From IMG/VR virus record IMGVR_UViG_3300037474_000152: 64,000 bases of DNA; one strand, written 5' to 3'. Below the pieces are notes generated by a model. That model saw only the letters and a program-made list of their open reading frames with translations, was not told where the DNA came from and ran no database searches. Numbering within the stretch: position 1 is the first letter of the stretch; each line of letters begins with the position of its first letter. The stretch is from a virus. The position numbers and the translations under genes are program-made. This document shows positions 1,243 through 58,067 of this stretch, piece by piece.

Positions 1243-1283
1243 AGAAAAACGCGGCTTGACACGGGTATGAGGGGAACAACAAA

Positions 1284-1889
1284 ATGAGCGCATGGGACGA
1301 GAAAAAACCAATCTTAAAGCGCTTGCCGCAATACGCATGGCAAGACAATGAAATTGTCAGTTGGATAGTCGATCCATATGACCGCATGCTTGTTGAGTTA
1401 CAGCAGGCAATCCTCAACTTTCCCAAAGACTTCATCGACCCACTAACGTGCAGGGCTGACGCCTTGGACTGGCTTGCTCAGTTGATGGGATTTACGGGGG
1501 ATTATTGGGACACGAGCTGGCCCGAACCAGTTAAGCGCACGCTAATCAAAAACGCCCAGTTCGTATGGAGTTTTAAGGGGACTCAACAGTTACTGGAATA
1601 TCTATTAGCCTTGTTCTCGCTTGATGTTGCGATCGAGCTTCAAGGCTCTTGGCAGGTCGGGGAAACCGCAATTGGTAGCCCCATTGGGGGGGAGTTGTTG
1701 ACCTATTCCTTGCTTGTCAACTCAACAGGGCGAGCTTTTTACCTGCGATCAAGCGACCAATGGCGACTCGTTGAGCAGCTCAATCGACTCTTTATGCCGT
1801 GTTGGTGCTCTCCAGGGTCGCTCAATGGCTCATTTGTACACTATGATAGATTTCGTGTAGGTCTGAGTGCCGTAGGGGAACCCATCTGA
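1284..1889 (+). CDS. P2 gpI-like phage tail/baseplate protein
   Basis: DPLTCRADALDWLAQLMG...W...KRTLIKNAQFVWSFKGT pattern; lies between J and the fibres. Confidence 0.8.
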   Translation: MSAWDEKKPILKRLPQYAWQDNEIVSWIVDPYDRMLVELQQAILNFPKDFIDPLTCRADALDWLAQLMGFTGDYWDTSWPEPVKRTLIKNAQFVWSFKGTQQLLEYLLALFSLDVAIELQGSWQVGETAIGSPIGGELLTYSLLVNSTGRAFYLRSSDQWRLVEQLNRLFMPCWCSPGSLNGSFVHYDRFRVGLSAVGEPI

Positions 1890-1890
1890 C

Positions 1891-3084
1891 TTGACTTTGA
1901 TTACGGGAATTTTTAAAGATTCTGGGGGAGTAGCGATCGCGTCTGGAGTTTTGCGCGTAAAACTGGACGCTCCTTTAAAGGATATCGACACAGATCCGGA
2001 TAGCTACCATCTTCAAGTTGAACACGATTTCTCTATTACAAATGGCGTCTTATCGCCCGTCACTGTAAAAGAAAGTCAAACCAGTAACACTTCCTATACG
2101 TTCACCGTCCTGCAAAGCTTCACCGACTACACCTATTACAAAGCAGGTACTGGCGACTATTACTCGACTAACGACGAATTTCCCTCCCACCTCTACACGG
2201 ACGGGAAATACTATTCAGGTGTTAACCATGCCGCCGAGTCGATTCCTCTAGAAAGAATCGCCAGACCCCGACTAGAGACAGTTGGAGAGGCATTCCAGGC
2301 AATTGTCCCAAACGTAGCAGAAATAAGCTTTGCTCAATTGGAGCGCACGGGATTTGCAACCGATCGCGGACCCCAAACGGCAAAGCAGGTGGGGGAATAC
2401 CTGAAGACTGACCCCTTGTTCTTGCAGTCGCTGGTGAGCATTGTTGTGAGCCAAGGGGAGTGGAATGCGGCAATTCTTTATCGCAGGGGTAATCTTGTTT
2501 CAGTGGGAGGTTCAACTTATCAGTGCCTTGCACAAACGAGCATTAACCAACCCCCAGCCGCTAACCCTACTATCTGGCAGTTGTTCGCCGCTAAGGGAAA
2601 TCCAGGGGGAACGAGTGGCGATAACTCTGCGTTTGGGGCTGGGTGGAGTGGGGACTTAAACGCTCCTTCCAAAAACGCCATTTACCAGGAATTTACCAAC
2701 AACCGAGCAACCAAGGCACAGGTAGACGCCAAGGCTCCTCTCGCCTCCCCTACCTTGACGGGACTCCCTCTTTCGCCCACGCAAATTCCAGGAACTGGGA
2801 CTGGGACGAATAAAACAGCAATTGCTACTTGCGAGTATGTGGATGTTGCGAATGCTGCGCTAATTCAACTTCCCATTAGCGCTATTGCGATCGCTTCTTC
2901 CCCTACTCCTCCAGCTCGGTCAGTGCAAGCCAACGGGCAGGCTCTTTCGCGCACAGTCTATGCAGCCTTGTTTGCAATCATTGGGACGACGTTTGGTGTA
3001 GGCGATGGCTCAACCACCTTCAATGTTCCTACCCTTGTCGCACCGGGGGCTAACATGTACTACGTCATCGTCACGGGGGTTTAA
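1891..3084 (+). CDS. Tail fibre protein (CBM-like module and C-terminal tail-collar-like motif)
   Basis: GEWNAAILYRRGNLVSVGGSTYQCL...IWQL module; NGQALSRTVYAALFAIIGTTFGVGDGSTTFNVP collar motif; TTG start. Confidence 0.75.
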   Translation: MTLITGIFKDSGGVAIASGVLRVKLDAPLKDIDTDPDSYHLQVEHDFSITNGVLSPVTVKESQTSNTSYTFTVLQSFTDYTYYKAGTGDYYSTNDEFPSHLYTDGKYYSGVNHAAESIPLERIARPRLETVGEAFQAIVPNVAEISFAQLERTGFATDRGPQTAKQVGEYLKTDPLFLQSLVSIVVSQGEWNAAILYRRGNLVSVGGSTYQCLAQTSINQPPAANPTIWQLFAAKGNPGGTSGDNSAFGAGWSGDLNAPSKNAIYQEFTNNRATKAQVDAKAPLASPTLTGLPLSPTQIPGTGTGTNKTAIATCEYVDVANAALIQLPISAIAIASSPTPPARSVQANGQALSRTVYAALFAIIGTTFGVGDGSTTFNVPTLVAPGANMYYVIVTGV

Positions 3085-4503: not shown

Positions 4504-4947
4504 ATGACAAAGAAAACAAGCGCGGCGGCAGCAGTAAAAGTAATGTGGTGGGTTGACGAAAACGGACAGGTAGTGAGCCTTGCGTCTCCTACTGGATTGC
4601 CCGCCAATATCAGAGAAATCGAAGGCGTGGATTTGCCTTTACCCAATATCTACTTCAATGGCACTGAGGTTGTGGAAAAACCTCCTCAGCCCTCAGGCAA
4701 TGCCGAGTGGGACGCCGTGCTCAAGGATTGGATTACTCCTTCAGAACCTCAACCTCAACCTCCACCACCTCAACCGGATTATTACAACTTTCGCCTAGGC
4801 ATGCTTGTAGCAACCATGTGGAATGCGCTGATTGATGAGCTAGAGGAGAAACCCAAGGCAGCAGAAGTGAAATCTTGGAATGCGATCGCTCAAGCAAGCA
4901 ACGTGCCGATTAAGTTTGGGAAAGACGGCAAGATGAACTTGGCTTAG
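4504..4947 (+). CDS. Putative tail fibre assembly protein
   Basis: Small gene directly after the fibres with a Pro-rich linker; call is positional. Confidence 0.45.
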   Translation: MTKKTSAAAAVKVMWWVDENGQVVSLASPTGLPANIREIEGVDLPLPNIYFNGTEVVEKPPQPSGNAEWDAVLKDWITPSEPQPQPPPPQPDYYNFRLGMLVATMWNALIDELEEKPKAAEVKSWNAIAQASNVPIKFGKDGKMNLA

Positions 4948-4975
4948 GCGCGGTGGAACGCGGGTATCTAAAAAG

Positions 4976-5012
4976 AAAAACCCGCCACAGAGGACGGGCT
5001 GAAGTTTTTTTT
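4976..5012. terminator. Possible bidirectional intrinsic terminator
   Basis: A-run, imperfect CCCGCC/GGACGGG stem, T-run, between convergent genes. Confidence 0.4.
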
Positions 5013-5998: not shown

Positions 5999-6135
5999 GC
6001 TTATTTTCGTAAATCTACTACGTGGATAGACTAAGCCTAACAGATTTTAGCATTCGGCTGGAAGGGGGTACTTCCAATCAGCTTAAGGCTCGGTTTTCTT
6101 GAAGTATCCCAAAACACGGGATTATATTCAGCTAA

Positions 6136-7536: not shown

Positions 7537-9086
7537 CAGCCCAAGCCCAATTTGTCGAGGATTATCTTTAAAAGCTTTTCCGATGGAGGTTTTCCGCTTA
7601 GCGATGCCCACTCAGAAGCTATTGACTGGGGTGAGGGCAGTTCGTCAAGAGACTGCATCCAGCTAATCATCTCCTCCATTAGCTGATCGACTGTCTTCAA
7701 GACATGCTCGGTTGCTTCAATTTTGTCTATCTCAACTTCTGTTGATTGCGCCTGATAACCATCTACGTCAAACTGAGGAATTAAAGCAACATAGGGATTG
7801 CCCCGCATTGGAATAACAAGGGCGCATCGCTGACCTGCGCTTGTCATTAACTCAAACGCTTGCTGTAAAACCTCCTGAGTCTCCTTGTTGACATTCAGGA
7901 AGTCGCTGGGATGGTCAAAGATGTAATTTGCAGTGTTTCCTAATGCAATGAAACAACAGGACTTATAGGCAGGACGAGACAGTCCAGTGTCTCCGGACAA
8001 TGGAGATTGACCAATTCCGATGTAATGACCCTTTGCTCCAGCCATGTACTTAATCAAGAAATTCCACAGTGACTGCAAGGATTGAGCTTGTGACGACTGC
8101 ACCTTCTTGTCAGCACCCAAGAAGCCCAAAAAGCCTTTGCCGTTGTTATAGACAGAGTCAACTTCGTCCTGAACAAAGAACAGCTCGCCCACCTCCTTGG
8201 GGTTGCTAGCATAGGCTTTCTTCTGATCGTTCGCTTTTTGGAAGGCAAACTGAATCCAGTTGTCGATTGTCTCAACACCATCAAACCGATAACTAAACTT
8301 GCAAAGCCATCGGCTTACACCGTCTTTTGGGTCGTTGCCAATAATAGTGGATGGGGTCTCAGACTTGAAGGCTATCTTGTTGATGATGACGCCAGCAATT
8401 GTGGACTTGCCGGATTGAGTTTCGCCTGTTATACAAAAGTGGTGATTGAACCGCTTTGACATATTGGAGTTAGATGCAGCATCACATAGCTCATCAATCC
8501 AGATCGCATCAACACGAATGTATTGGGGATAAGCTGCGCTCAACTGATCGAGTTTGACCAGTAAGTCAGGTGCAACCACAGAATCAACCTGAGACTGGTC
8601 AATAGGTGCCACGTTAGGCGATGGGATACTGGCACTTACAGGCTGCTCGACAGGTTCAGCCGTCAAATCCTGCAATGGCGGCATGTTCGACTCAACACCT
8701 GCGCGTCTCGCCCAGTGTCCCCACTCCCACGGATTGGACTTGTTGAGTATCAGTTCAACCTTGCGTGTTGCACCATCCACCTCAGCCGCAAGCTGATAAA
8801 CCTCCTCTTCCTCCTTAAGTTGATACTTCATTGACTCCCATTGCACCGTTTCCAATGCGCTGTCCACTTTGCGAACCTTCTCGGATAACTTGCAGTTGAC
8901 GGTGTAACATGCCAACCCAGCCATGCCCGTCGTCGTGAGCATGGCTTTAGATAACTTATCGAGAGAACCCGCGAACAATAAAGCGCTACCAAATCCAATA
9001 GCAAAGGATGTGAGGAACATTGCGTCGTAGGCATTGGCAATAATCCGGGATGGCTTCAGGGCGGCTTTTTCGGTCTGGAACAGCAT
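7536..9086 (-). CDS. Membrane-anchored P-loop ATPase, FtsK/HerA/TraB-like
   Basis: Two N-terminal TM segments, Walker A GETQSGKST, Walker B FFVQDEVD, downstream IGIGQS sensor-like motif. Confidence 0.75.
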   Translation of the reverse strand: MLFQTEKAALKPSRIIANAYDAMFLTSFAIGFGSALLFAGSLDKLSKAMLTTTGMAGLACYTVNCKLSEKVRKVDSALETVQWESMKYQLKEEEEVYQLAAEVDGATRKVELILNKSNPWEWGHWARRAGVESNMPPLQDLTAEPVEQPVSASIPSPNVAPIDQSQVDSVVAPDLLVKLDQLSAAYPQYIRVDAIWIDELCDAASNSNMSKRFNHHFCITGETQSGKSTIAGVIINKIAFKSETPSTIIGNDPKDGVSRWLCKFSYRFDGVETIDNWIQFAFQKANDQKKAYASNPKEVGELFFVQDEVDSVYNNGKGFLGFLGADKKVQSSQAQSLQSLWNFLIKYMAGAKGHYIGIGQSPLSGDTGLSRPAYKSCCFIALGNTANYIFDHPSDFLNVNKETQEVLQQAFELMTSAGQRCALVIPMRGNPYVALIPQFDVDGYQAQSTEVEIDKIEATEHVLKTVDQLMEEMISWMQSLDELPSPQSIASEWASLSGKPPSEKLLKIILDKLGLG

Positions 9087-13352: not shown

Positions 13353-13826
13353 ATGGCGGTTTTTTTTTCTTTCCTGCTTATGCTCAACGAACAGCGTCGA
13401 TTAGATGCCCTCGAACGTATTCAACAAAAGAAGGAGCAAGGGGAAGCCGCTCCCACTCCTATCCGAATTGTTGGCACCTCATCCCCTTCAAAGACCAAAG
13501 CACCAAAAAGAGTGCAAAAACACTGTGCAGTCTGCAATCAACTTTTCGAGGTTCGCTCTAGTTGGGTTAATCGCGTCTCCACGTGCGGAAAACCTACTTG
13601 TAGCTCGCAGTATCACACCAAACGAAAACCCATCAAGCCCCCAGAACCGAAAGTAAAGGCAGATCGCACGGTTACTAAACTTTGCGCGATTTGTTCAATG
13701 CCATTCACTCTTCCCAATAGCTGGAAAGACCGCATTTTCACCTGTCGCAACAGTGACTGCACTTCTACCTACCGATCTCAAAAAAGAAACCGCCCACAAG
13801 GACGGTCTAAGAAAAACGCGGTCTGA
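13353..13826 (+). CDS. Zinc-finger protein with two CxxC...CxxxxC repeats
   Basis: CAVCNQLF...TCGKPTC and CAICSMPF...TCRNSDC. Confidence 0.6.
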   Translation: MAVFFSFLLMLNEQRRLDALERIQQKKEQGEAAPTPIRIVGTSSPSKTKAPKRVQKHCAVCNQLFEVRSSWVNRVSTCGKPTCSSQYHTKRKPIKPPEPKVKADRTVTKLCAICSMPFTLPNSWKDRIFTCRNSDCTSTYRSQKRNRPQGRSKKNAV

Positions 13827-13834
13827 CGCGGGTA

Positions 13835-19322: not shown

Positions 19323-19501
19323 GGACAGGCCCCCACCCAATTAAGATAACCGCGTTACACCGCGCCTTGTGTGGGGTGTGAGCTTTCTCCTTCAAATGGG
19401 CGACAGTCGTTAAAATACTCTTTTACGACTGTCACAGGCTTGGTTCCCTTTTCCCTCGACTCGGCTCAAAACTTGGACACTTACAGCTAGCGGCTAAAGG
19501 C

Positions 19502-20886: not shown

Positions 20887-21598
20887 GCTTTGAGAAATTC
20901 TTGAGAAAGACGTTAGAGACAAACGGCTATCAGGTCAGTAGAGATCGGGGAAACTGGAAAGTTTCGTATTGGAAAGTTTCAGGGTCTGCGTTTAGCGAAA
21001 GGGCTGGAATTATTGCAATTGTCGCGAATCCGAAGGACAAAGAATGTGCGGTCGCTAAACCCTTCGGTTACAAAAACAGCTCCCCCCAGTTTTTACACTT
21101 GCGCTGCTGCTTAGCCGTAGCCGTCTATAACTACGATTGCGCGGCTAAGGAGGTTGCATGACGTTTACCCAATCTCAGCAACAAGAAGCACTGAAAGAAC
21201 GAGACCAATTAATCCAATCAGTCCAGTTACAAAACATCGGGTTGAGGGGTGCTCTGCGAGAAAGCGATCGCCTGCTTCGAGTGTGCGTTGCGCTGTTGCT
21301 TGATTCTGGCGTGACGCCTCCTGTGGAGGTTTCTAATCACCTTGGTTCGCAGGTGTTAGCCCCAGCAGTGAAGCCAGAGCTAGTCCTCACAGAGTGGCAA
21401 GTCAAGGCACTTAAGGCGTTGTTGGTAGCTCGTACAAACGGAAAGAGTTGGGTTCATTACGGAAACCAAGTTTACCCAGTCCCCACAGTTCGACTACTCA
21501 AAGAAAAGGGACTTATTGATGTTAACGAGCGCGGATGCTCGCTAACAGACAAGGGACTTTTTGTTGCCAAGCAATTAGTAGGAAAAACGCATGAATAG
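20883..21598 (+). CDS. Two hypothetical early genes (20883-21161, 21158-21598)
   Basis: Overlapping start/stop junctions; the second has a wHTH-like C-terminus. Confidence 0.55.
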
Positions 21599-22445
21599 CA
21601 TAACCGTTGCCCCGATAGAGTCGCTAACTATTGGCTCTTACGACGAAGCTCTTGTGGCAAAGTTTGTTGAACAAATAAAAAACGATGGAGACTTGCCCCC
21701 CATCGAAATTAGCCCAGACAATATTGTAATCAAAGGAGCTGAAACAGTCGTTGCTGCAAAGCAATTAGGATTTTCCACTCTTGCAGCCATTGTAACAGGA
21801 GGGGTTAACCCACCTCTAGAGAGCGAACCAGATGAAAACGCGATCGCCCTGTTATCTGATGAAGAGTTAATCAACCAAGTCAATGCCGAGGCTGACCTAG
21901 CCTTCAATGCAGCAGGGGAAGCCCTCAAGCGTGCCAGACGTGCCGGGATGATTCTCTTAGAGCAGCGGCGCAGGACAAAGCGAGGGGGATGGCTCCCTTG
22001 GCTTAAGGCAAACTGCCCTCGGATCAGCGAGCGGACTGCTCAGGAGTGGTGCCAAATCGCTCGCGACTGGGACGAAATACAAAAAGGCGCGGCAGAACGC
22101 GGATTGGATTTAGGGAACCTCACTCAGTCCAGCGCACTAAAACTATTAAGGGGAACAAGTGAGGCTACTGATGACAGCACCTCAAAGCCACCCAAGCAGA
22201 CAGAGGCAGAGCCACAGCAGAGCGCAGCCCCAGCCCCCATGCCAACGGTTGAGGACGTATACGCGGCATTCAGCTCTCACCTGCATTCCCTCCCACCCCG
22301 CAGGGTGGTGGCAACGGTGAAGCAGGTTTCAGAGACATTCAGCTCAGACCGACTCTCTTCCCTCGACCGAAGAGACCTCGAAGACTTAATCCACTCCAGT
22401 TCCTGTCTAATTCGCCAAGCCAAAGCAGCGCTGGGGGGACGATGA
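21591..22445 (+). CDS. Degenerate ParB-N plus DUF3102-like domain protein
   Basis: LPPIEI...VIKG...AAKQLG (ParB-like, no GxxR); GMILL...GGWLPWLKANCPRISERTAQEWCQIA. Confidence 0.6.
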   Translation: MNSITVAPIESLTIGSYDEALVAKFVEQIKNDGDLPPIEISPDNIVIKGAETVVAAKQLGFSTLAAIVTGGVNPPLESEPDENAIALLSDEELINQVNAEADLAFNAAGEALKRARRAGMILLEQRRRTKRGGWLPWLKANCPRISERTAQEWCQIARDWDEIQKGAAERGLDLGNLTQSSALKLLRGTSEATDDSTSKPPKQTEAEPQQSAAPAPMPTVEDVYAAFSSHLHSLPPRRVVATVKQVSETFSSDRLSSLDRRDLEDLIHSSSCLIRQAKAALGGR

Positions 22446-26203: not shown

Positions 26204-27993
26204 TGATTATGTTGGCCACAGAAAAACCATTCAATATCGACAAGGCAATTGAGCAATTAGCCCAAGAGCGTGACAGCATTAACCCCGACCAATATCGGGG
26301 AAAGAACGGAGGAAAGACCCCTCAGTACGAAAGGGCAAAACGCCGTCAATCCCAATTCAATGACGATATCAAATCCGTTGAAAAGATGCGGCAGCTTGCC
26401 ATTAATTCAACGGTCACTTACAAACAGTTTGGAGAAGGCATAGTGACGGCTCATCAGATTGATGACCGAGGCATTCCAATGGTCTATGTGGAGTTTCCTG
26501 AAACTGGGAGCAATTGGTTCCCCCCAAGAGAAGTAGAGCTAGTCACACAGTTTTGGAGGAATCCCCACGGGCTTCACCCAGTTGATGGAGTTGATGAAGA
26601 CCTGCTGAAATACAACGTCATTCCTTGCCACACTTTGCCGGTAAACGAGCAAGTTGAACTGTGCCAAAAACGGATTGAATTGCAGCAGGACCACCTTTCC
26701 GACATTGAGAAACACAAGCCCAGCGCAGCGGCAAAAGTCAAAGAAGCGGTTGAGGCAGTGATTCAGGAAGAAAGCGATCGCATTAAGATGCTGAGTACCA
26801 AATTATCAAACGAGCCTTTCCTCAAGTGGGCTGGCGGCAAGTCTTGGGCAGTAGAGCTAGTAAAGGAACTCTACGCACCATTTAAGAATTTTCGCCTTGT
26901 AAGCCTCACCCTTGGTGGAGGGGCGATAGAGTTAGGGCTTCAACCCAAACGAGCGCTACTGTGTGACATTAATCCCTACCTCATTAATTGTTGGCAATGG
27001 GTAAAAGAGAATGGAAAATTCACCATTCCCCTAAAAAGCCGGGAGGACTATTTCAATGAAATTCGCAACCGTTTCAACGCAAATCCCCTGCATCCAGAGG
27101 CTCCGCAGTGGTTCTACCTACTCAACCACACTTGCTTTAACGGGTTGCAGCGCAGTAGCTCTATAAAACATTTCAATGTGGGCTGGGGAAAGTACAAAAA
27201 ATTCCACGGTCAAAGCGATCTAACCCACTACAAAACCGGGATGACTGAATGGGAGTTTAAAGCTCAGTCGTGGGAGCAAACACTATTAGAAATTCAGGAA
27301 GACGATTTTCTGGTTTTTGACCCGCCGTATCACGGCACTGGATTTAAAGAGTACTACGGCAAGTTCACTGATGACGATCAGATGTTTGCCGCGTCGGGTC
27401 TAGGTAGGTTGTCAAATCCGATGGTGGTTTTCAACGCAGCTACCCCTGAAATGCTTGAGCTATACCAAGATTTAGGTTTTGATGTGGAGGTAAAAGAAGT
27501 TGCTCGCAGCATTTCTTGTAATGGTGATCGCACTCCAGCGCTAGAAATGATTGCAACCAAGAACTTGAAAACTGTTTTACCTTGCTCGCTGCTCTCATTA
27601 GATGACCGCATTAACACCGTCCTACAACGCATTTTAGTTATTCCCAACCTTGAGCAACTGCAAAAGGAAGGAGCAACAGACGAGCAACTGAAAGAATCGC
27701 TTGCCTCTGCGTTTGGCCCCGGTACTGGCGCAAGCCTACCCGAGTGGTGGTATGCCTCTTGTGAAAAATCCCCCAAGTTTTGGTTGAAGCAGGTTCCGGA
27801 AGGTAAGCCTGATTTGCAGGGGAATGCGTTTGTTGAACGAATCAGGAGACTTTACAGCATCGGTCAACCCGTGGAGATATGCGCGTCAGACCGCGTATTA
27901 ACCAACAGCGATTTGGTGTACCGCCAGTTTTTGTCGATGGGATTGCCGCCAGCGCAGGCAAGATATTTAGCTGGTCAATCTGAACCTGCGTGA
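26200..27993 (+). CDS. dam: Dam-like (D12 class) DNA adenine methyltransferase with N- and C-terminal extra domains
   Basis: PFLKWAGGKS, CDINPYLIN, FYLLNHTCFNGL, FDPPY, VARSISCNG. Confidence 0.85.
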   Translation: MMIMLATEKPFNIDKAIEQLAQERDSINPDQYRGKNGGKTPQYERAKRRQSQFNDDIKSVEKMRQLAINSTVTYKQFGEGIVTAHQIDDRGIPMVYVEFPETGSNWFPPREVELVTQFWRNPHGLHPVDGVDEDLLKYNVIPCHTLPVNEQVELCQKRIELQQDHLSDIEKHKPSAAAKVKEAVEAVIQEESDRIKMLSTKLSNEPFLKWAGGKSWAVELVKELYAPFKNFRLVSLTLGGGAIELGLQPKRALLCDINPYLINCWQWVKENGKFTIPLKSREDYFNEIRNRFNANPLHPEAPQWFYLLNHTCFNGLQRSSSIKHFNVGWGKYKKFHGQSDLTHYKTGMTEWEFKAQSWEQTLLEIQEDDFLVFDPPYHGTGFKEYYGKFTDDDQMFAASGLGRLSNPMVVFNAATPEMLELYQDLGFDVEVKEVARSISCNGDRTPALEMIATKNLKTVLPCSLLSLDDRINTVLQRILVIPNLEQLQKEGATDEQLKESLASAFGPGTGASLPEWWYASCEKSPKFWLKQVPEGKPDLQGNAFVERIRRLYSIGQPVEICASDRVLTNSDLVYRQFLSMGLPPAQARYLAGQSEPA

Positions 27994-36275: not shown

Positions 36276-36386
36276 GAGATAAGCGCGGTTTGACGCGGCT
36301 AACTTTCGTGGCGTGTCTAAGCTTCCATTTTGCCTTAACACCCCGGACATGCCGATAATTGAGGAAACCCTTTACCTGCTAAACCC

Positions 36387-38313: not shown

Positions 38314-38358
38314 GCGCGGTATGGCGCGGTTTTATTGAGGAGCGATCGCACATAAATA

Positions 38359-40520: not shown

Positions 40521-41300
40521 TTAGTCCTGAGTTAGCTTGACTTGGCAGTAATCTTCAGTGACTTCGATAATCACAGGCAGAAAATCTTCCGGGTAAACCT
40601 TGATTTCAGTCTGATGATTAGTTCCTACATACTTTGGTGCAGTCGTCGGATCGCATTTCCGTTGCTCGCGCCAAGCCTCAGCTATCTTGCGCCCTAACCA
40701 ATTCTCCTTGTTAGTTGGTGGACGATAGCCAAGAGTGCCAAGCCATTCTGTTGCTGAAAGGAGTTTAGGTTCGTCGGACGGAGCGGCAACGCCCTCAATC
40801 ATGTTCTTCAGCATTGCGCTTGCTGCCATTGCTAGCCGCTCATCATAGCGAAGATCCAAGAAGCCTTTACTCAAGTCCAGCAGCCTTAGCTGATTCTCGT
40901 AAGACATTGGTGGGAGCTTAGGTTGCTCAGACTTAGGTTCTGACTCCGCTGATACAAAGCCAAGTAGCGTGAGATTACACCAAAGGCGAAAAGCTGCACT
41001 AATCCACTGTGCAACATCAATAGCGATGAGTGGATGAACCCAAGTTCCGCGCGTCTCATTGGACCCCGTCTTGATTTCGATAATTAGTTGGTTGGTCGTC
41101 AATCCGACCGACCTTGATACTTCATCTAAATACTCGGCTGTTGAATCTAACTCCTTGTAATGCTTCCACTGCTTGCCGTTTGCCTTGCACATCTGCGTAG
41201 CATTGACGTAATGCCGAGGGATGTCATATTTCGCAATCGTCATGGGTTGCTTTAGCTGAGCAATGCCGTATCCGTTCCAATCATGTGTGATAATGTTCAT
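40521..41300 (-). CDS. KilA-N domain protein
   Basis: YVNATQMCKANGKQW.HY...GTWVHPLIAIDVAQWISAAF. Confidence 0.9.
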   Translation of the reverse strand: MNIITHDWNGYGIAQLKQPMTIAKYDIPRHYVNATQMCKANGKQWKHYKELDSTAEYLDEVSRSVGLTTNQLIIEIKTGSNETRGTWVHPLIAIDVAQWISAAFRLWCNLTLLGFVSAESEPKSEQPKLPPMSYENQLRLLDLSKGFLDLRYDERLAMAASAMLKNMIEGVAAPSDEPKLLSATEWLGTLGYRPPTNKENWLGRKIAEAWREQRKCDPTTAPKYVGTNHQTEIKVYPEDFLPVIIEVTEDYCQVKLTQD

Positions 41301-43348: not shown

Positions 43349-44419
43349 TTGCAGTTAATTGAAGCCTTTGCCGAACTAGGTCGAGTTGTCCGTTCCCAAG
43401 CAAACCGAGATATTGCCGATATCTACGAAGAGCGCATTGCAACTGCGTTCCACAAAGATGTGGGGAATCTGCTCTCCTCTATCAAGAATGAAATGTCATC
43501 TGACATGGACTGGCAAGCGCAGTACTCAAAATTGGATACTACAGCGCTTGCTTCCACACTTTCCACTATCAATCAACTTGGGAGAATACTGGGGCGTTAT
43601 TCCGAGCGTGCTGACAGGGAGGGTGTGGAGTTTGCGGACGACCCCACTCGCCTGCCATTTGATAAAGCGATCGCATATTTCCGTCAAAAGCTCAATATCC
43701 CCACCGGTACGTGGAAAACCATCCAAGGGGCTGAGAATGACTGGGCGTTTGGGATAGCTAAAGTCACCTGTGCCGAGATGTTACAGGATTTCAGGGAGGC
43801 ACTGGATAGGTATATTGCAGACGGTACGGGATTTGCTCAATTTGCAAAGGACTTCGATGCGATCGCACAAAACTATGGATGGCAGCCCAAAGGAGGAATA
43901 GCAAGGTCGGCTGACCTTGTGGCTAAGACTAACTTTCGTATGGCTTACGCAGCAGGACAGTGGGAGCAAAGACAAGACCCCGTGGTGAAGCAATTGCGTC
44001 CGGGTTTGATGTGGAGACACCGAGATTCCCCTAACTTCCGCCCTCACCACAAGGCACTAGATGGGATGGTGTTTGATGGGAATGACCCGCAGTATGCTGG
44101 GTTAAGCGCGCCATCGGGATTTGGGTGCAGGTGCCGACTCTACTCCGTTCCGTTGCCAGACAATGGGTTTGACGTGTTGAGCGATCGCCTCCCCTGCCAA
44201 CTCCCTAACGGTAAGGTGGGAAAAGTGCCAGCTATCAAGATCGAGGATAAGCTCTACCCGGTTGCCGATCCGGGTTTTTTCTATGTACCGGGTGCTAGTC
44301 CCATTTCTGCTCGCCCCCAGCTATTCCAGCAGATGCTTGAGAGGCAGCCGCCAGTGTGGCAGAAACTAATTAAACGAGCAATCCCACGAGCAATACTAAA
44401 GGTGATAGGCGCGGTGTGA
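43349..44419 (+). CDS. MuF-like head morphogenesis protein
   Basis: LPFDKAIAYFRQK, TNFRMAYAAGQWEQ, RPHHKALDG, PSGFGCRCR; TTG start MQLIEAFAELG. Confidence 0.9.
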   Translation: MQLIEAFAELGRVVRSQANRDIADIYEERIATAFHKDVGNLLSSIKNEMSSDMDWQAQYSKLDTTALASTLSTINQLGRILGRYSERADREGVEFADDPTRLPFDKAIAYFRQKLNIPTGTWKTIQGAENDWAFGIAKVTCAEMLQDFREALDRYIADGTGFAQFAKDFDAIAQNYGWQPKGGIARSADLVAKTNFRMAYAAGQWEQRQDPVVKQLRPGLMWRHRDSPNFRPHHKALDGMVFDGNDPQYAGLSAPSGFGCRCRLYSVPLPDNGFDVLSDRLPCQLPNGKVGKVPAIKIEDKLYPVADPGFFYVPGASPISARPQLFQQMLERQPPVWQKLIKRAIPRAILKVIGAV

Positions 44420-44475
44420 CGCGGATATGAGTTGAATGACCAGCAGGTAATTGTATCCATTCATCGGTTGATTAA

Positions 44476-47276: not shown

Positions 47277-47279
47277 ATC

Positions 47280-49032: not shown

Positions 49033-49054
49033 CCGCGTCATACCGCGCTTTCCC

Positions 49055-49852
49055 TCACCAATCGCTGCTCAATTCTGGCAACACCCCAGCATCATCAGGA
49101 ATCAGCGTCAGACCATACCATGCGACAATACCACGCTCGTTTAGGCTGTAGCCGTGCCAGTCTACCTCTGACGCATAAACAACCGACTCTCCCGTCGTCA
49201 TCACCACAACGTCTTGCTGGGCTTCCTTGCGGCGATAAGATGCAATCCCCCGAAACAACGCATCGTAGACAAGCTTTCCCATTGCACCCTTGCCGGGGAA
49301 GTCATCTAGCTCACAGCCTCTCTCGCCAACTAACACCTCTTCTAGAACCTCAAGTAAGACACAAGCCAGGGGAAGATTAAAACCTAAAAGGGCAGGAGGG
49401 CGTCTAGCGTTAGCGTCACCTTTGCAACCCTTTGGAAGTGGTAGACTTTTGAACCGGAATAACTTGAAAGTGTCGCGCAATTCGTAACGGTACTTCCTTA
49501 GAGATGCTTCTGATATCTTGATTTGCCAGAATGCACCAATCTGGTCAGCTACGCCTTCAATCGTGACGTTGAACTGCCCAATTCCCTTGAGCGCCAATTC
49601 TCGAATATTGCTAGCAACCCGATGGAATCCCTTTGCTTCCCCTTGCGCTCGTCTCACCTTGGTCACAATTCCAGTAGAGCAACAAGCGCGATAGGTCAAG
49701 GCGTTGAGATAGGCAAACACTACCTTGAGCTTTTGAGTTCGCCAACCACGGACAAGTGAAGTGAAGTGAGTCCGTATGGCGGTTATCTGTGATTTACTGG
49801 GAATTCTTGATTGAAAGCCTTGCGGCATGCTAGCATTCATATTGTCAATCAC
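49055..49852 (-). CDS. Orphan basic protein, possible wHTH (GVADQIG...ISEASLRKYRYEL)
   Basis: 265-aa ORF antisense to the structural operon. Confidence 0.5.
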   Translation of the reverse strand: MIDNMNASMPQGFQSRIPSKSQITAIRTHFTSLVRGWRTQKLKVVFAYLNALTYRACCSTGIVTKVRRAQGEAKGFHRVASNIRELALKGIGQFNVTIEGVADQIGAFWQIKISEASLRKYRYELRDTFKLFRFKSLPLPKGCKGDANARRPPALLGFNLPLACVLLEVLEEVLVGERGCELDDFPGKGAMGKLVYDALFRGIASYRRKEAQQDVVVMTTGESVVYASEVDWHGYSLNERGIVAWYGLTLIPDDAGVLPELSSDW

Positions 49853-50123
49853 TGGTGATTAAAGTAATTGGTTGACCAACCCCGGAGCGCGTCAACGCTG
49901 CCGGGAACTTTTGTATTTTACCAATCTTTCGGCTAAAGCACAATTTTCTTCATCCTTTGAGGTGCTACCTTTTAGCCATTTTGTTAGCCAAGAAATGGAA
50001 GGGGATTCTTTGCACGGTTCAACCCAAGCAGCAAAAAGACAAGGCATTTGAGCGGTCAGTAGAAGATATTGCTTTAGCCGAAACTTTGCATAAGCGCGGC
50101 ATAACGCGGGTTTCTTCTTGCTA

Positions 50124-50363
50124 TTACTTGCACATCCACTTCCAAAACTCAATTAGCGACAGTCCATAAACCCGCGCGATCGCTTCTGCGTATTCAGTCG
50201 TCAGCGACGTTCGCCCTCGTTCTAGCCGACGAACCGTGTCGTAGCTCACGCTAAGCGCTAGGGCCAGCCGTTCTCTGCTCCATCGGTTTTCTTCTCGCAG
50301 GGCTGTCAGCCGGCCCCCGTAATCAACTTTCTGCAATATTTGCACGGCAATTGAGGCAAACAT
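50124..50363 (-). CDS. XRE-family HTH regulator
   Basis: RLTALREENRWSRERLALALSVSYDTVRRLERGR...AIARVYG. Confidence 0.85.
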   Translation of the reverse strand: MFASIAVQILQKVDYGGRLTALREENRWSRERLALALSVSYDTVRRLERGRTSLTTEYAEAIARVYGLSLIEFWKWMCK

Positions 50364-50406
50364 TCTCCAATTCTAAAGGATTGAGAAATTAATCTAAAAG
50401 CTGGTG
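50332..50406 (+). promoter_or_regulatory. Upstream region, copy 1 of a 75-bp diverged duplication
   Basis: Aligns ungapped with 55162-55236 (56/75 identical by hand). Confidence 0.65.
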
Positions 50407-50435
50407 GATAAAAGCGATGGAGGCCTTAAGGTCGG

Positions 50436-51125: not shown

Positions 51126-51126
51126 T

Positions 51127-51477
51127 ATGCCAAAAACTGTAATTAATTCAACTGCGTACACGATAGACCCGTCAACGTACACAGATAGAAGCGCGGCTTC
51201 TGATGCCAGTGTTGCAAACTTTACTACTGTTTTTGCGGCTGGCACTACCCGAACTGAATTCTTTTTTCAAGCTAGCGACCCTGGCACGGGCAATGATACA
51301 GGCCCATTTTTCTTGTACTACGGCACAGGTGTGGGGGCAAAGATGTTTCGTAAGGTTTTTCCTGGTGAGTCAGTTCACAAAATTAATAACTTAAATAACT
51401 CAGACCTAGGGATCATTTCGGTCAAGTCTGCGATTGCTTCTCAGGGATTTATAGCTTGGGAGTGTACAGTAGCATAA
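51127..51477 (+). CDS. Hypothetical beta-rich protein
   Basis: 116 aa, coupled to neighbours. Confidence 0.55.
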   Translation: MPKTVINSTAYTIDPSTYTDRSAASDASVANFTTVFAAGTTRTEFFFQASDPGTGNDTGPFFLYYGTGVGAKMFRKVFPGESVHKINNLNNSDLGIISVKSAIASQGFIAWECTVA

Positions 51478-54400
51478 TGGCTGTAAATCTTTTTGATTCT
51501 GGAATAGCTAAGCCCGGAAGTTTGCAAAAGCGAGTGGCTCAAAAGCTGCCATACGCGCCCCGTCATCAACGTGCTCGAGTTGTCAAAAGCGCTCAAGCTG
51601 CATCGGTATTTCTCAACCAATCTTTTACGGCAAGTCAAGTTATCGATCTGTTAGGGCAATGCCGTTGGTTTAGCTTTGAGGAATACGTCACTTTCAAAGA
51701 TGTGTCAGCTACGCAACGAACCAACTTTGACACGATCAATACTGAGACTGTTCGAGATGCAAATTTTATTTATAGGGCTGACGTTCAAGTTAAGGCTGCT
51801 AGGGGTTTAGTCAAAGGAGAACTGTTAGTTTCTCCTGCTACTGGAGGGAATCCAGCTTTTCTTCGGGTTGATGGCATGTCTTTGGTAGGCGATCGAACGT
51901 TTGATATTTCAGGGAGTTTTTTATTAAATTCTAATTTTTCGATTATTACAGGATTGTCTGTTAATTATCTCGATGATCCGGCAAATACTTATCCAATGCG
52001 TTTAGTAGATGCAACAGAATTATCGATTAGATATGCAGCATACAATTCAATTACTTTTAAGGTAGGATCAACAACAATTACGGGTTCTCTCACAGAGTCT
52101 CAAGTCCCCTATAAAAAAGCTCGTCATTTCGTGACAACACGTCTTGATTCTTCGGGAATGGGACTTTGGATTAATGATGACAGTATTGCTGTAAGTTCCA
52201 CGAATACACAACTGTCTACGCTAACAAATTTTCAATTAGGTTCCGGATTAAAGGGAACTGTCTCTGATTTGATTTTTGCTCCAGCATTAACAAGCAATGA
52301 GCTAAAGGCTATTAGAACTTTTTTAGCGATTTACAAAGACATAGAGTCAGCAACTTATCAAAAATCTCAAACAAGTCTTATAACTGATTCATATTCTCGA
52401 ACATTTTTACCTTTTGGGAACACGGCAACCAAGGGAAAGAGTTTTACACAAAATGCCGATGCTATTTGCGTAGACAGCGACGGAACTCTGTATACAGCAG
52501 GAATTTACGACGAAGACGCTCATGCATGTGGAGCCTATACATCGGCTGGAATAAATAAAGGTATTTTTCCTTTTGGAGCCGTAGCCTCTTCTCATGCAGT
52601 AGCTACGGATGCAACCTACGCTTATTTTGCTGGAAGCGTGGGATCGACCTCCGGACAGTTTGGAGTAAGAAGATACAATAAAACAACTTTTGCTTTAGTA
52701 AATTATTCAAGTGTCAATGGTTTTCCTACTAGTACGTCAGCAGGAACTTCCTCCGATCCGTCGTTCTATCCAATTAGAGGACTTTCTGTTTCAGGTTCAG
52801 AAATCTATGTCTCCGATGTTCAGGCTAATAAAGTAAAAGTTTATAACACAGGAACTGGCGCTTTTGTTCGTGAATTTGCTTGTACAAACCCCTACCAGTC
52901 AACTATCGATGGTTCTGGAAACATTTGGGTAGTGCAGAAAATTGCGGGAGCGGGATTGGTTACGTTATTTTCTTCAACAGGCACTCAGCTTAAGCAAATT
53001 ACAACTGTTACGAAACCTTCAGGAGTAGCGATTAGTGGCACAACTCTTTATGTGGGAGACAACGGAACGAAGCAAATTCGTATTTTTGACGTGTCGAGTA
53101 CTCCTACTCAATCCTCTGTAATTGGTGCTTCTGTATTTGCTAGCTCCCGTCCAGTAGCAAGTCGAGGAAAAATTACGCCACTCTTTTGGAGAGAAATCAC
53201 TGACATTGATATAGATGGATCTGGTAATCTCTACGTATCAGATAGCCGATATGATATCGGAGCAAGAGTTGAATCTTATAAACTTAGCGATAGTTCACGA
53301 AACTATCAATTACTGGGATTATTATTTGTAGATGTTTGTGACATCGATCCAGACGACCAAACGATTGTATATTCTCGTTCTCATAAATTTAAGCTCAATT
53401 ACGCTAATAAAACCTGGTCTTATGATGCGTGTCTTGTAAACTCGGACAAATTCACTACGGATATCCGCCCCGATCATATTGGCAACAGCTTTGTCAATAT
53501 TGTTAATATTCTCGGTGATAAATTTTTATTACTTTCTAAAGCAACAAATAGTACTGAAGCTATTTTTGCTTTGTTTAGATTTAATAAAACATCGGAAGGA
53601 GAAACAGCCATTCCCTGCTTAACTTATAACTATTCAACAGGAAGTTATTGGGTAGATGGCAATGGAGATGGAATCGTTCAATCTGGTGAGCAAAACGTTG
53701 CACTAGGTCTACCATTTGGAACAATAGCTTCTAACGGTAATTTATTAAGTATCTCAGTATCTAGTGGAACCTTTATTCTTAAAATAACGCCAGTAGCAAG
53801 TCTAAATGGTTATGGTGTTCCGGTTTATGACTTTAATTCTGTTCAGTCTTTTACAATTCCAGGGACAGCTAACTTTGCTAATGTCAAAAGACTCATAGAA
53901 TCTAACGGAAGAATTTTTATTTCCGCTACTAGTAACTCTGCAAATACAGATGGTCGGTTTGCTGGGGAGATTATAGCTGAATATAGGTTGCAATCCAATC
54001 TAGTCAAGATCAGAGAATTTAAGATTCCCAACAACGACAATCTCTTGCACGTATCAAAAAACATAGCAGTGCAAGATGATTTACTGTTTGTCAGTTATTT
54101 AACTTCGGATGAGTACTATTACCCTAAGACGTTTAGATTAATTAGAGTGTTTAATCTATTAACAGGGGCAGAAATAGCAAAAACTCATCTATCTCCTTTT
54201 CCAGAAAATCTAAGCTGGCTGGACATCGACGAACCGATTCGAGTCAAAAAATCATCGACTTACCCTAATCAATACTTGATTGCCGCACAAGATGTGGCTT
54301 ATTTACAAAATCAAGTAACAATCTTGGACTTTCAGCTAAATGTCATTATTGGATACGATCCTCTAACTACTGCTTTTGTAGATCGAATAAACCGTAGTGG

Positions 54401-55109
54401 CGGGAGTATTTCTAGTAACGACATATTATCGGTTAATACTTTTATTGGATCAATACGTTCATTGATCGACGCTGGATTAATTTACGAGTTCGATCCATTT
54501 GCGGGAGATGATGCAAAGTCCGCCATTTGCAAACTGATCTATCAAGGTGCCGATCCTGAGTTTCTAACTAATACTAGTTACAGTCAATCTCCTGCAGGAA
54601 AAGCTCTGTATGCCCGAAATAAGGGCTTTACCATGCTTCGAGGCTCGGATCACAGCTATCTTGATACAGGTGTTCCTGGTAATAAATACGCAACAGTTTC
54701 AAATGGTGGATTAGGAGTTTATGTTCGTAATTGGATAGATAATACTGGAACTGCTATCGGTTCAGGACAACTATATATTAAACCTCGAACAACAGGAGGA
54801 ACCCTAGTAAACTATGCTGCCAATGCCACTAGGGGAACTAATTATTTTGTTGAAACTTTTGGGTTTGGTTGGTATACAAGTAATTCAGACTCTGCATATC
54901 GAAACGGTATTTTTCAGGCGAGTTTAGGTCAAGAAGCAATAGATACAGCTAATATTTCTATTGGACAAAGAATCGGACAACTGGATACAACTGCATCTGA
55001 TTTGGGATGCGCTTGCATTAAAAAGAACTTGACGGCGTCTCAAGAATTAACTTTGTACAATGCTGTTCAAACTTTGATGACGGCTTTTGGTCGTAATTCC
55101 ACTCCATAA
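51477..55109 (+). CDS. Large virion-associated protein: LamG-like domain, NHL/beta-propeller repeats, C-terminal lectin-like domain
   Basis: Repeats such as IDGSGNIWV, GVAISGTTLYVGD, IDIDGSGNLYVSD; TAATG coupling gives start 51477; AT-rich. Confidence 0.65.
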   Translation: MAVNLFDSGIAKPGSLQKRVAQKLPYAPRHQRARVVKSAQAASVFLNQSFTASQVIDLLGQCRWFSFEEYVTFKDVSATQRTNFDTINTETVRDANFIYRADVQVKAARGLVKGELLVSPATGGNPAFLRVDGMSLVGDRTFDISGSFLLNSNFSIITGLSVNYLDDPANTYPMRLVDATELSIRYAAYNSITFKVGSTTITGSLTESQVPYKKARHFVTTRLDSSGMGLWINDDSIAVSSTNTQLSTLTNFQLGSGLKGTVSDLIFAPALTSNELKAIRTFLAIYKDIESATYQKSQTSLITDSYSRTFLPFGNTATKGKSFTQNADAICVDSDGTLYTAGIYDEDAHACGAYTSAGINKGIFPFGAVASSHAVATDATYAYFAGSVGSTSGQFGVRRYNKTTFALVNYSSVNGFPTSTSAGTSSDPSFYPIRGLSVSGSEIYVSDVQANKVKVYNTGTGAFVREFACTNPYQSTIDGSGNIWVVQKIAGAGLVTLFSSTGTQLKQITTVTKPSGVAISGTTLYVGDNGTKQIRIFDVSSTPTQSSVIGASVFASSRPVASRGKITPLFWREITDIDIDGSGNLYVSDSRYDIGARVESYKLSDSSRNYQLLGLLFVDVCDIDPDDQTIVYSRSHKFKLNYANKTWSYDACLVNSDKFTTDIRPDHIGNSFVNIVNILGDKFLLLSKATNSTEAIFALFRFNKTSEGETAIPCLTYNYSTGSYWVDGNGDGIVQSGEQNVALGLPFGTIASNGNLLSISVSSGTFILKITPVASLNGYGVPVYDFNSVQSFTIPGTANFANVKRLIESNGRIFISATSNSANTDGRFAGEIIAEYRLQSNLVKIREFKIPNNDNLLHVSKNIAVQDDLLFVSYLTSDEYYYPKTFRLIRVFNLLTGAEIAKTHLSPFPENLSWLDIDEPIRVKKSSTYPNQYLIAAQDVAYLQNQVTILDFQLNVIIGYDPLTTAFVDRINRSGGSISSNDILSVNTFIGSIRSLIDAGLIYEFDPFAGDDAKSAICKLIYQGADPEFLTNTSYSQSPAGKALYARNKGFTMLRGSDHSYLDTGVPGNKYATVSNGGLGVYVRNWIDNTGTAIGSGQLYIKPRTTGGTLVNYAANATRGTNYFVETFGFGWYTSNSDSAYRNGIFQASLGQEAIDTANISIGQRIGQLDTTASDLGCACIKKNLTASQELTLYNAVQTLMTAFGRNSTP

Positions 55110-55161
55110 GGGAAAGAAGAGTGTGAAGCAGAGCGCGAGGTGGCAAAAGCTTTGCTCTAAT

Positions 55162-55236
55162 TGCAATATCTGCACGGCAAGTAAAGCGAAAACCCTTCAG
55201 TTTCAAGGTTTTAAGGAATTAACCTGAAAGCTGGTG
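55162..55236 (+). promoter_or_regulatory. Upstream region of the protease-capsid operon, copy 2 of the 75-bp duplication
   Basis: TGCAATATYTGCACGGCAA...AATTAAYCTRAAAGCTGGTG shared with 50332-50406. Confidence 0.65.
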
Positions 55237-55252
55237 ACTCGTTGAAACGTGC

Positions 55253-56686: not shown

Positions 56687-57036
56687 TGGCTATTAAGCAA
56701 AGTGTTGTCAACTTAAACATTGTCACTACGGGCGCAATTGCAAAAAAGCGGTTTATTAACCGCCTGGGCGCTCAGGCTACTGCTAACCAAAACACCCTTG
56801 GCGTTAACGATTACGCCGTCGTAGCTGGGGAGTGCGCTTTGTGCGACCACTTGGGCGTGTCAATGGTCGAGGCTGGTGCGGCGATTGCAGCCAACGTGAC
56901 CGAACGCAGGTTAGAGACTAATGCAACCGGTCAAGCTGTCACCTACACCACGGGCCCAGCTGTAGCCGTCTTGCTGCCCGGTCAGTCTGCCACGGCAGCA
57001 GGTCAGCTCATCAGCGTTATTTTGTTGTCGAACTAG
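56686..57036 (+). CDS. DUF2190-family capsid cement protein
   Basis: Small Ala/Gly/Thr-rich gene between protease and MCP; VEAGAAIAA...TNATGQAV. Confidence 0.7.
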   Translation: MAIKQSVVNLNIVTTGAIAKKRFINRLGAQATANQNTLGVNDYAVVAGECALCDHLGVSMVEAGAAIAANVTERRLETNATGQAVTYTTGPAVAVLLPGQSATAAGQLISVILLSN

Positions 57037-57044
57037 GGGGAGGA

Positions 57045-58043
57045 ATGGTCGTAGAATTTGTCCGCGAGGGCATGAATCGAAGTGAGGTGAAGGCTGGGTA
57101 CAACATGGTCCTCAGCGCTTACGCCACTGGCTACACTAACGCTGAATTTAAAGGACGCTTTCTTTCTCCCTTTGCTGAGGTCCCGGCACGAACGGGGAAT
57201 ATCGTTCAGTTTGACGACTCGGCATTTGAGATAGCAGAAGATGACAGAGCAGACGGTGGTCCTTTTAACGAAATTCAAAGCGGATACGAAGGCTTACCTT
57301 ACAGCTTGAGAAACAAAGGGCTTGCTTTTAAAGTTCCTGTCGAGCACGAGGAACAAGCGCAAACCGCCAACATCAATCTAGGGAAGCGTGCCAGTAACGC
57401 ACTAATGATGCGTTCGGCCCTCAATATTGAACTCGAACAAGCCCGCGTTGCTCGAAACCCAGCCAATTACAACGGGTTGGTTATTGCTCTTTCGGGGGCT
57501 TCTCAGTTTAGTGACTCAGGTTCTCGCCCCGATCAAGTTGTGGAAGTTGCAAAGCTTGCGATCGCATCTCGCACTGGGCGCAAACCCAACGTGATGCTGG
57601 GCGGAGAGCAAGTTACCTCGGCGCTGCGAACTCACCCGTTAATCCGTGCTAACTTTCAGCCGACTAGCTCAATGTCCATTACGGACGAGATGCTGGCTCA
57701 GTATTTCAACGTCGATCGTTACGTGAGTGGCGAAGCGATTTGGCGTAACCCAGCAACTAGGGCTTTGGAGTTTATTTGGGGCAAAGACTTAATTCTTGCC
57801 TACACCAACCCCAAGGCATTTGAAGGGAACGAAGGTCGAATCGCTTACACAACCGATAACGACATTGACAGAATGGCGGAACCCAGCAAGTTCTATACCT
57901 ACGTCCTTAAAGGTGTTCCCAAGGTGAGCAATCCCTTCTGGTGGGAAATGAACGATAGCTGGTACTACAAAATTCGCTTTGAGCGCCAGCATTTTGTCAC
58001 TGGCATGGATTCTGGTTATTTGGTTCAAAACGCAGTTGCATAA
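57045..58043 (+). CDS. Major capsid protein
   Basis: 332 aa after protease and cement; TGRKPNVML...ALRTHP.I...LAQYFNV..Y..GEA...WGKD.ILAY. Confidence 0.85.
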   Translation: MVVEFVREGMNRSEVKAGYNMVLSAYATGYTNAEFKGRFLSPFAEVPARTGNIVQFDDSAFEIAEDDRADGGPFNEIQSGYEGLPYSLRNKGLAFKVPVEHEEQAQTANINLGKRASNALMMRSALNIELEQARVARNPANYNGLVIALSGASQFSDSGSRPDQVVEVAKLAIASRTGRKPNVMLGGEQVTSALRTHPLIRANFQPTSSMSITDEMLAQYFNVDRYVSGEAIWRNPATRALEFIWGKDLILAYTNPKAFEGNEGRIAYTTDNDIDRMAEPSKFYTYVLKGVPKVSNPFWWEMNDSWYYKIRFERQHFVTGMDSGYLVQNAVA

Positions 58044-58067
58044 GCGCGGTATAACGCGGTTTTAAAA

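Follow-up and report, generated by a model that had tools for sequence, protein, structure and literature searches.

What are the twin GC-rich boxes that recur along the DNA of a large cyanobacterial phage, and what might read them? The question was raised by a 64,000-nucleotide stretch of the virus record IMGVR_UViG_3300037474_000152 (the whole stretch is called the window here), in which a first-pass annotation had noticed ten dispersed CGCGG-N5-CGCGG sites at gene boundaries. The window, in which the HIP1 octamer GCGATCGC occurs 45 times, is part of such a phage, and its family of sites now stands at 13. These elements are real and discrete, constrained position by position, mostly non-coding, evenly spaced and absent from host-type genomes. 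It is from these properties that we infer the binding of a protein, its candidates and its effect: we regard it as an even bet that a single sequence-specific protein, one that organises or silences the phage genome, uses the 13 elements as docking sites on double-stranded DNA.

A Family of Thirteen Sites

The window contains 11 exact copies of CGCGG-N5-CGCGG, against 0.06 expected; none of 100 dinucleotide shuffles reached 11, and this shuffled-control scan bears out the earlier estimate of well under one copy by chance. All ten sites of the first-pass annotation were recovered at their positions. Its count of nine exact copies and one single-mismatch copy was nevertheless too low, having missed 22088+ (spacer CAGAA) and 62157- (spacer TACGA), and it had put two copies on the minus strand, where there are four. 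Two one-mismatch members, 1250+ (G12 to A; 30.3 bits) and 27881- (G15 to C; 28.0 bits), complete the family: on a weight matrix the 13 sites score 28-37 bits, the next match 18.5 bits and the best match in shuffled sequence 16.7 bits. CGCG pairs separated by 0-15 nt in the window fall almost wholly on one spacing, with 13 at N6, one at N12 and no others; seven copies in the 64 kb have a spacer of the form YNTRA. Two further one-mismatch matches were rejected, that at 3855 being a Gly-rich coding repeat and that at 29759 (18.5 bits) a classical terminator hairpin with a T-run. The latter is part of a bidirectional terminator (29757-29776) consisting of an A-run, a hairpin and a T-run, whose stem, GCGCG/CGCGC, mimics the motif.

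The 15-bp tandem unit originally described is present, but alignment of the 13 copies showed that the conserved element is longer, an asymmetric block of about 25 bp (-4 to +21) with the consensus W-A-R-G-CGCGG-Y-N-T-R-A-CGCGG-n-T-W-T-n-W. The A at -3 is found in all 13 copies and the T at +17 in 12, and G5 and G15 are invariant across the family, the G15-to-C variant at 27881 aside. Positions 7 and +16 are free of information, although the positions adjoining them are invariant, a pattern that argues for selection by a reader over recent copying. Dyad symmetry is confined to the self-complementary CGCG core; G5, G15 and the flanks define a direct repeat, which explains the invariance of the two G residues in a way that a 4-bp hairpin does not.

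Placement, Spacing and Orientation

With a gene list vetted by codon-usage score, 92% of the window is coding, yet in ten of the 13 sites most of the sequence is non-coding (P 2e-9), and eight of the 13 have a stop codon, on either strand, no more than 15 nt away. In four cases the stop stands directly before the motif as TAA or TAG followed by G, and in two the TGA of the spacer is itself the stop. The six plus-strand stop-codon placements noted earlier all stood up to inspection. Site 1250..1264 (+) is 7 nt past the stop of a baseplate-wedge gene (1242) and ahead of the next tail gene (start 1284). Three exact plus-strand sites begin 1 nt past a stop: 4949..4963, at the convergent junction that follows gene 4504-4947, where it adjoins a bidirectional terminator (4979-5000); 38315..38329, behind TerL and 29 nt before the portal gene; and 58045..58059, behind the major capsid gene and 8 nt before the next start codon. 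The spacer TGA terminates ORF (open reading frame) 13353-13826 at the exact site 13817..13831 (+), another convergent junction, with a minus-strand terminator (13787-13808) adjoining, and it terminates the MuF-like gene at the exact site 44410..44424 (+), where the next gene begins 51 nt downstream.

Four more exact copies are intergenic or close to gene ends. Site 49033..49047 (-) fills the 22-nt gap between the convergent genes 48592-49032 (+) and 49055-49852 (-), the second of which encodes an orphan protein of 265 amino acids (the 265-aa protein), and 50095..50109 (+) is 14 nt from the stop of an XRE-type helix-turn-helix (HTH) gene, 50124-50363 (-). Together these two sites form an inverted pair, the closest pair in the window (1,077 bp end to end), around the 265-aa gene. 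Site 19350..19364 (-) lies about 30 nt past a plus-strand terminator (19290-19311), in an intergenic gap of 240 nt, and opposes the plus-strand genes that flank it; 36284..36298 (+) precedes the terminase operon in a divergent region, where 11 nt separate it from the ATG (36272) of the leftward gene. The remaining three are within genes. The exact site 22088..22102 (+) occupies codons 166-171 of a ParB_N-like/DUF3102 gene, where genes overlap and intergenic gaps are lacking, 27881..27895 (-) is in the 3' part of a D12-class methyltransferase gene (26200-27993), and the exact site 62157..62171 (-) is in the final 40 nt of a tail-chaperone ORF, 61479-62195 (+), opposing the local genes. The two copies furthest from gene ends, 22088 and 27881, both lie in a gap-free run of overlapping genes. 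Sites are thus found in gaps, or in genes where there are no gaps, so that the array spans the whole genome, and this makes a genome-wide role likely.

The sites recur about every 5 kb, and their gaps (coefficient of variation, CV, 0.47) are more even than chance (P 0.005-0.006), whether the null places sites uniformly or draws them from the 51 junctions with gaps of at least 15 nt. Convergent junctions carry a site in three of seven cases, against five of 82 co-directional ones (P 0.014); leftward gene blocks have 32 internal junctions, all without a site. With the vetted gene list, nine of 13 sites are co-oriented with transcription, which is not significant (P 0.13), and four are antisense to local genes. 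A rule that the sites point with transcription was dropped, as two small ORFs that supported it score as non-coding, leaving nine of 13.

A Counterpart Array in a Related Phage

A homolog search with the 265-aa protein led to the nearest complete relative, G521 (IMGVR_UViG_3300035683_000001; L475-L480), a complete cyanophage genome of 103,420 bp with terminal repeats. Nine genes are common to G521 and the window, with identities of 75% for DnaB, 54% for the initiator, 60% for the 265-aa protein and about 50% for a KilA-N domain considered below; the virion module is different. There is no CGCG-N6-CGCG site in the G521 genome. What it has is a family of its own, 12 copies of T-n-(A/C)-ACCGC-N8-GCGGT-T-A-R against 0.07 expected, at that spacing only, and with spacers that fall into two subfamilies, TAGATCTA, which contains GATC, and AATTTCAA, in either orientation. 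Lack of conservation in related phages had been named as an outcome against the first-pass reading, and here the result is divided: the exact motif is absent from G521, but an analogous family with a different sequence is there.

The placement of the G521 family follows familiar lines. Nine or ten of its sites fall between genes, several have a stop within 10 nt, one is 29 nt past the stop of the 265-aa homolog, and two are clearly intragenic, in ORFs of 12.5 kb and 4 kb. The spacing is very even (gaps 4.4-12.3 kb, CV 0.28, P 6e-5). The half-site GCGGT corresponds to positions 2-6 of the first box of the window motif, and it is the arrangement of the boxes that differs, a direct repeat in the window versus an inverted repeat, or palindrome, in G521. 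Two phages of one gene pool thus each hold a private, evenly spaced, mostly intergenic family with a shared half-site, and the even spacing in both is the least expected feature. The window's sole match to ACCGC-N8-GCGGT (13343) is not a counterpart site; it is an ordinary terminator. G522 has one copy of the G521 palindrome and no 265-aa homolog.

The Motif Outside the Phage

The first outcome that the first-pass annotation had set against its own reading, that the motif might be a generic repeat of the host, was not what was found: counts are at control level in 545 cyanobacterial genomes, and although the actual host may not be among them, the same counts speak strongly against a host-wide repeat of the REP or HIP1 kind. 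The three cyanobacterial genomes with the closest TerL relatives contain 5-16 copies each of the bare pattern, equal to the reversed-pattern control, and none with a YNTRA spacer. In 401 cyanobacterial genomes the spacer-constrained pattern totals 15 occurrences, again the control level, with no genome having more than two, and the extended pattern did not occur in 144 genomes of the Microcoleus-type family.

Beyond these genomes, the extended motif gave one chance hit in IMG/VR and 105 single-copy hits in 241 million metagenome contigs, with a sole exception. This is L234, a plasmid-like metagenome contig of 11.9 kb (48% GC, six HIP1 copies) that encodes a DUF3854/helicase protein of a kind found on cyanobacterial plasmids. 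It has three full-consensus copies of the motif scoring 30-33 bits (638-652, 6009-6023 and 8387-8401), one of which is the G15-to-C variant also seen at 27881; two of the three abut stop codons and two oppose local genes. As L234 carries the motif without sharing genes with the window, the reader may be encoded by the host or outside the visible DNA, a possibility equal to that of the candidates in the window.

Searches for other carriers yielded no usable relative among GenBank phages (by DNA and by TerL, the major capsid protein, DnaB and the 265-aa protein), among plasmids, or among viral contigs queried with the protein encoded at 21591 and its homolog P0122. Apparent analogous motifs in TerL relatives (L001-L011 and L302-L304) were rejected, the repeated words being protein-leader coding sequence or chance. 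An unrelated viral contig of 47% GC has three tandem CGCGG units with a 10-bp period (L162:1570-1605) followed by other tandem repeats, and this region looks like an iteron or origin region.

Candidates for a Reader

If a protein docks on these sites, it would read two GCGG-type boxes exactly one helical turn apart and on the same face of the DNA, together with A/T-rich flanks, either as a head-to-tail pair of subunits or as a single protein whose two reading heads are similar. Its sites would be kept in the short gaps at gene ends where such gaps are available, and inside genes elsewhere, and with an array that covers the genome its likely job would be to silence or insulate transcription units, or to organise and condense the phage chromosome. 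The general proposal of the first-pass annotation, binding sites on one helical face, remains the best explanation after these analyses, but its more specific versions (parS-like sites, antitermination and RNA processing) have fared worse. The identity of the reader would show how large, mosaic and bidirectionally transcribed genomes are silenced or folded in hosts without Rho, would reveal the DNA specificity of one of three little-understood families (viral KilA-N, DUF3102/ParB_N-like or a 260-aa orphan family), and would give cyanobacterial genetics a compact and highly specific protein-DNA pair.

A candidate absent from the first-pass annotation is the KilA-N protein encoded at 40521..41300 (-), which matches Pfam KilA-N with an E value of 9e-21 and has a fold of the APSES type (Mbp1, PCG2). 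In its AlphaFold2 (AF2) model the N-terminal domain has a pLDDT above 90, and the top PDB matches (1bm8, 1mb1 and 4ux5; Foldseek probability 0.94-0.98) make Mbp1 and the PCG2-DNA complex its best structural counterparts. In the APSES family it is the wing that recognises a CGCG core, whereas viral KilA-N domains are of uncharacterised DNA specificity (PMC4862756). The residue preceding the conserved GTW of the wing is Arg in the window protein and Gln in the consensus of its homologs, two of which are 75% and 64% identical. The KilA-N protein of G521, whose domain is 51% identical, is a stand-alone protein of 116 aa with a different wing and without the C-terminal domain; a reading head that was kept, combined with a changed oligomerisation architecture, could explain how the same half-site comes to stand in a new arrangement. 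The C-terminal half of the window protein is common to Bro-N-bearing proteins (P0005-P0007) that lack KilA-N, and DNA-binding heads have evidently been swapped onto a common tail in KilA-N/Bro-N proteins.

The first-pass annotation had named two other candidates, the proteins encoded at 49055 and 21591, and both are still candidate binders. The 265-aa orphan (49055..49852, -) is flanked by the sites 49033- and 50095+, and in G521, too, a site lies just downstream of its homolog. The family to which it belongs is small and has no match in Pfam, NCBIfam or the PDB; its gene has IS630-type HTH domains as nearest atlas neighbours (score 0.81, which makes this a lead only). Against PDB sequences, profile searches with the KilA-N and 265-aa families were unproductive. 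The third candidate (21591..22445, +) is a degenerate ParB_N-like protein with an HTH-containing DUF3102 domain, and has one of the sites (22088) inside its own gene. Pfam gives DUF3102 only (E 1e-3), with ParB_N below threshold, and ParB_N is present in 39% of the members among its atlas neighbours (score 0.89, again a lead only). By eye the N-terminus is ParB_N-like, with G-A-E-T-V-V-A at the position of the GxxRxxA box, the arginines of which are missing.

Comparison with Known Systems

The closest parallels in phage biology are the stoperators of cluster A mycobacteriophages (L5 gp71; the TipsytheTRex repressor), which are repressor sites dispersed over short intergenic spaces (PMC9283540). 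A stoperator is an asymmetric 13-mer read by a monomer, its orientation strictly follows transcription, and the immunity repressor, with an HTH and a stoperator domain, blocks elongation (PMC9283540). The window shares with them more than ten copies of one asymmetric site spread genome-wide, structural genes included, mostly in short intergenic spaces, and a single phage protein as the proposed reader. The window sites differ in being a 25-bp tandem repeat of two GC boxes, in their even spacing, in the cyanobacterial host and in the recurrence of the motif on an unrelated element, and in the scanned ORFs neither Pfam nor PHROGs nor NCBIfam gave a recognisable homolog of the stoperator repressor.

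The KorB-OB operators of plasmid RK2 and the ParB/SopB sites of the phage-plasmid N15 are palindromic, and the HTH dimers that bind them have a ParB_N domain that binds CTP. In these arrays about a dozen identical sites are spread over a mobile replicon, some of them in genes or far from promoters, and are read by a globally acting protein of the ParB family. The window likewise has about a dozen dispersed sites, one of them within a ParB_N-like gene, and a centromere of the parS/N15 type had been proposed on first reading. That proposal has lost ground, as the boxes of the window site repeat directly instead of forming a palindrome, the window ORFs scanned yielded no ParA, and the ParB_N-like domain of the 21591 protein is below the Pfam threshold and by eye lacks the GxxRxxA arginines.

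With the Mlu I cell-cycle box (MCB) and Swi4/6 cell-cycle box (SCB) elements of the fungal APSES/KilA-N factors Mbp1, Swi4 and PCG2, the window shares a CGCG core and a phage-encoded KilA-N protein (PMC4862756). It differs from them in that the association of site and reader is missing across KilA-N-encoding viral contigs and in G521, and in the Arg at the wing residue before GTW. The repetitive extragenic palindromic (REP) sequences of enterobacteria and the bacterial interspersed mosaic elements (BIME) are short GC-rich repeats that lie after stops and between convergent genes in both orientations. The window sites are also found past stops, between convergent genes and in both orientations. 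REPs, however, are imperfect palindromes of at least 20 nt with hundreds of chromosomal copies, whereas the window motif is a direct repeat with a 4-bp palindromic core and is at background level in the 545 cyanobacterial genomes.

Weighing the Explanations

Several observations weigh against docking sites for a single genome-organising protein. G521 keeps both the KilA-N and the 265-aa homologs but is without the motif, and 80 KilA-N-encoding viral contigs have no excess of CGCG-N6-CGCG, which counts against the KilA-N candidate. L234, which carries the motif, has no detectable protein or DNA similarity to the window. The sites lack the orientation rule of stoperators (nine of 13 co-oriented in the window, P 0.13, and one of three in L234). 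Finally, the window proteins are on record on a contig of 138,466 bp, so that the 64-kb window is about half of the element.

The proximity to stop codons invites an RNA reading, in which the CGCG/CGCG pairs would form a hairpin with a conserved hexaloop at cistron 3' ends, recognised by an RNA-binding protein or by an RNase that processes or stabilises the upstream message. The stem does fold in 12 of the 13 copies (-6.4 to -8.2 kcal/mol), three of the sites adjoin operon-end terminators in addition to the eight-of-13 association with stops, and the G521 counterpart, as a true palindrome, could form stems of 5-9 bp. We nevertheless think it improbable. The folds are unremarkable against shuffles (z-scores -0.1 to -2.0), the helix is not extended (a -2/+16 pair exists in four of 13 copies), the invariant G5 and G15 do not pair, the stem is disrupted in the 1250 variant, the stems have no compensatory changes and the flanks no covariation. 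Moreover, four window copies and two of the three in L234 are antisense to local genes, so that their conserved loop and flanks would be missing from the transcript, and even spacing along the DNA is unexpected of an RNA element. The antisense copies and the unremarkable stability of the 4-bp hairpin speak equally against the antitermination and RNA-processing elements suggested at first. Intrinsic terminators were rejected as well, the stem being 4 bp where at least 5 bp and a U-run are required, and a consistent T-run being absent; nor do the sites substitute for terminators, since strong classical ones exist separately at operon ends, three adjoining sites in varying order and eight sites having none nearby. 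Stop-codon readthrough was discarded when direct reading of the sequence found the frame open only at the junction after the major capsid gene.

Just as improbable, in our estimation, is a selfish or recombinational mini-element, that is, mobile remnants or targets (IS630-like ends, homing-endonuclease sites or module-exchange linkers) that have settled at harmless stop-codon positions. An identical motif on the unrelated plasmid-like L234 would fit such an origin, which would also suit the occurrence in both orientations, the abutting of stops and the ability of the motif to supply a stop codon itself, as well as the inverted pair 49033-/50095+ around a gene with IS630-type HTH atlas neighbours (that lead only) and the presence of four GIY-YIG genes. 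But free positions beside invariant ones favour purifying selection over recent copying, random insertion would not be expected to give the even spacing of the two phages (P 0.005 and 6e-5), homology does not extend past 25 bp, no consistent target duplication was seen, only one of six synteny breakpoints in the head module has a site and two sites are at junctions that are not breakpoints, and no transposase or recombinase was detected in the window ORF scans. The same breakpoint count disposed of the sites as markers of module boundaries. Sites for a site-specific nuclease or nickase, or for other DNA transactions (gyrase, replication or packaging check-points), seem to us quite improbable. 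In phages T5 and phiKMV, single-strand interruptions are localised to consensus sequences, the window consensus is long, asymmetric and bipartite, nuclease genes (the GIY-YIG four) are abundant, and even physical spacing suits a DNA-mechanical role better than a gene-specific one. To our knowledge phage nick sites are strand-specific, though, and here there are copies on both strands; the G521 version is palindromic, the sites do not adjoin the endonuclease genes, and the sequence bears no sign of cleavage. We give very little credence to phage-specific promoters for a redirected RNA polymerase, despite a 25-bp asymmetric consensus of T7-type promoter size followed by T-A/T-T, seven plus-strand copies in the plus-oriented late region and the ideal position of 36284 before the terminase operon. 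Site 4949 runs straight into a terminator 15 nt away, and five others (13817, 19350, 27881, 49033 and 62157) face the 3' ends of genes that oppose them. Moreover, 8 nt separate the end of 58045 from the following ATG, the hexamer at +17 to +22 does not have the final T that is conserved in a -10 element, and no RNA polymerase or sigma factor was found in about 80 ORFs scanned.

Docking sites for a DNA-binding protein also admit a bolder version, which is speculative and in our view rather unlikely: large phages and plasmids of filamentous-type cyanobacteria may carry lineage-specific "ruler" arrays, twin GCGG-box sites every 5-8 kb, even in giant genes, that load or anchor an undescribed DNA-organising protein, with KilA-N as a possible reader. 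Genome-wide arrays of identical docking sites are, as far as we know, known from few phage and plasmid systems, and we know of none described for cyanophages and none noted for regular spacing. Were such arrays read by KilA-N, they would provide the first recognition sequence for a viral KilA-N domain, linked to the CGCG specificity of the fungal cell-cycle factors that derive from it.

Other Features of the Window

The virion genes of the window include a Mu-type head module (TerL, portal, MuF, gpS-like and major capsid protein), which, relative to Mu-like relatives, is split by three inserted blocks (40243-43316, 44476-45570 and 46056-55252) whose contents include an NHL-repeat protein of 1,217 aa as well as leftward regulatory genes. 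Among the replication genes, an O/DnaD-like initiator (23049-24188) is directly upstream of dnaB, which encodes the DnaB helicase. Inside the initiator gene, at 23551-23660, are four copies of the 11-mer CTAATAGCGAA, three direct and one inverted, a cluster that is probably a lambda-style origin with iterons within the initiator gene.

The window also encodes a Dam-class methylase and several small HTH and ribbon-helix-helix (RHH) proteins, with an RHH protein at 12041-12325. At least four free-standing GIY-YIG endonuclease genes are present (12639-13247, 16217-16774(-), 42340-42846 and 42843-43316), of which two form a tandem between the portal gene and the MuF gene, and they suggest heavy homing-endonuclease traffic in the phage. 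Paralogs of the MuF leader (43349, 44476, 46056 and 62265) do not track the sites, and a duplicated cassette was rejected as an explanation of the sites. These four genes share an N-terminal (M/L)(L/Q)LIEAFAELG module, with 37-40% identity over about 130-190 aa among three of the four, and differ in their C-terminal parts, one of which is a HipA/PI-kinase-like domain.

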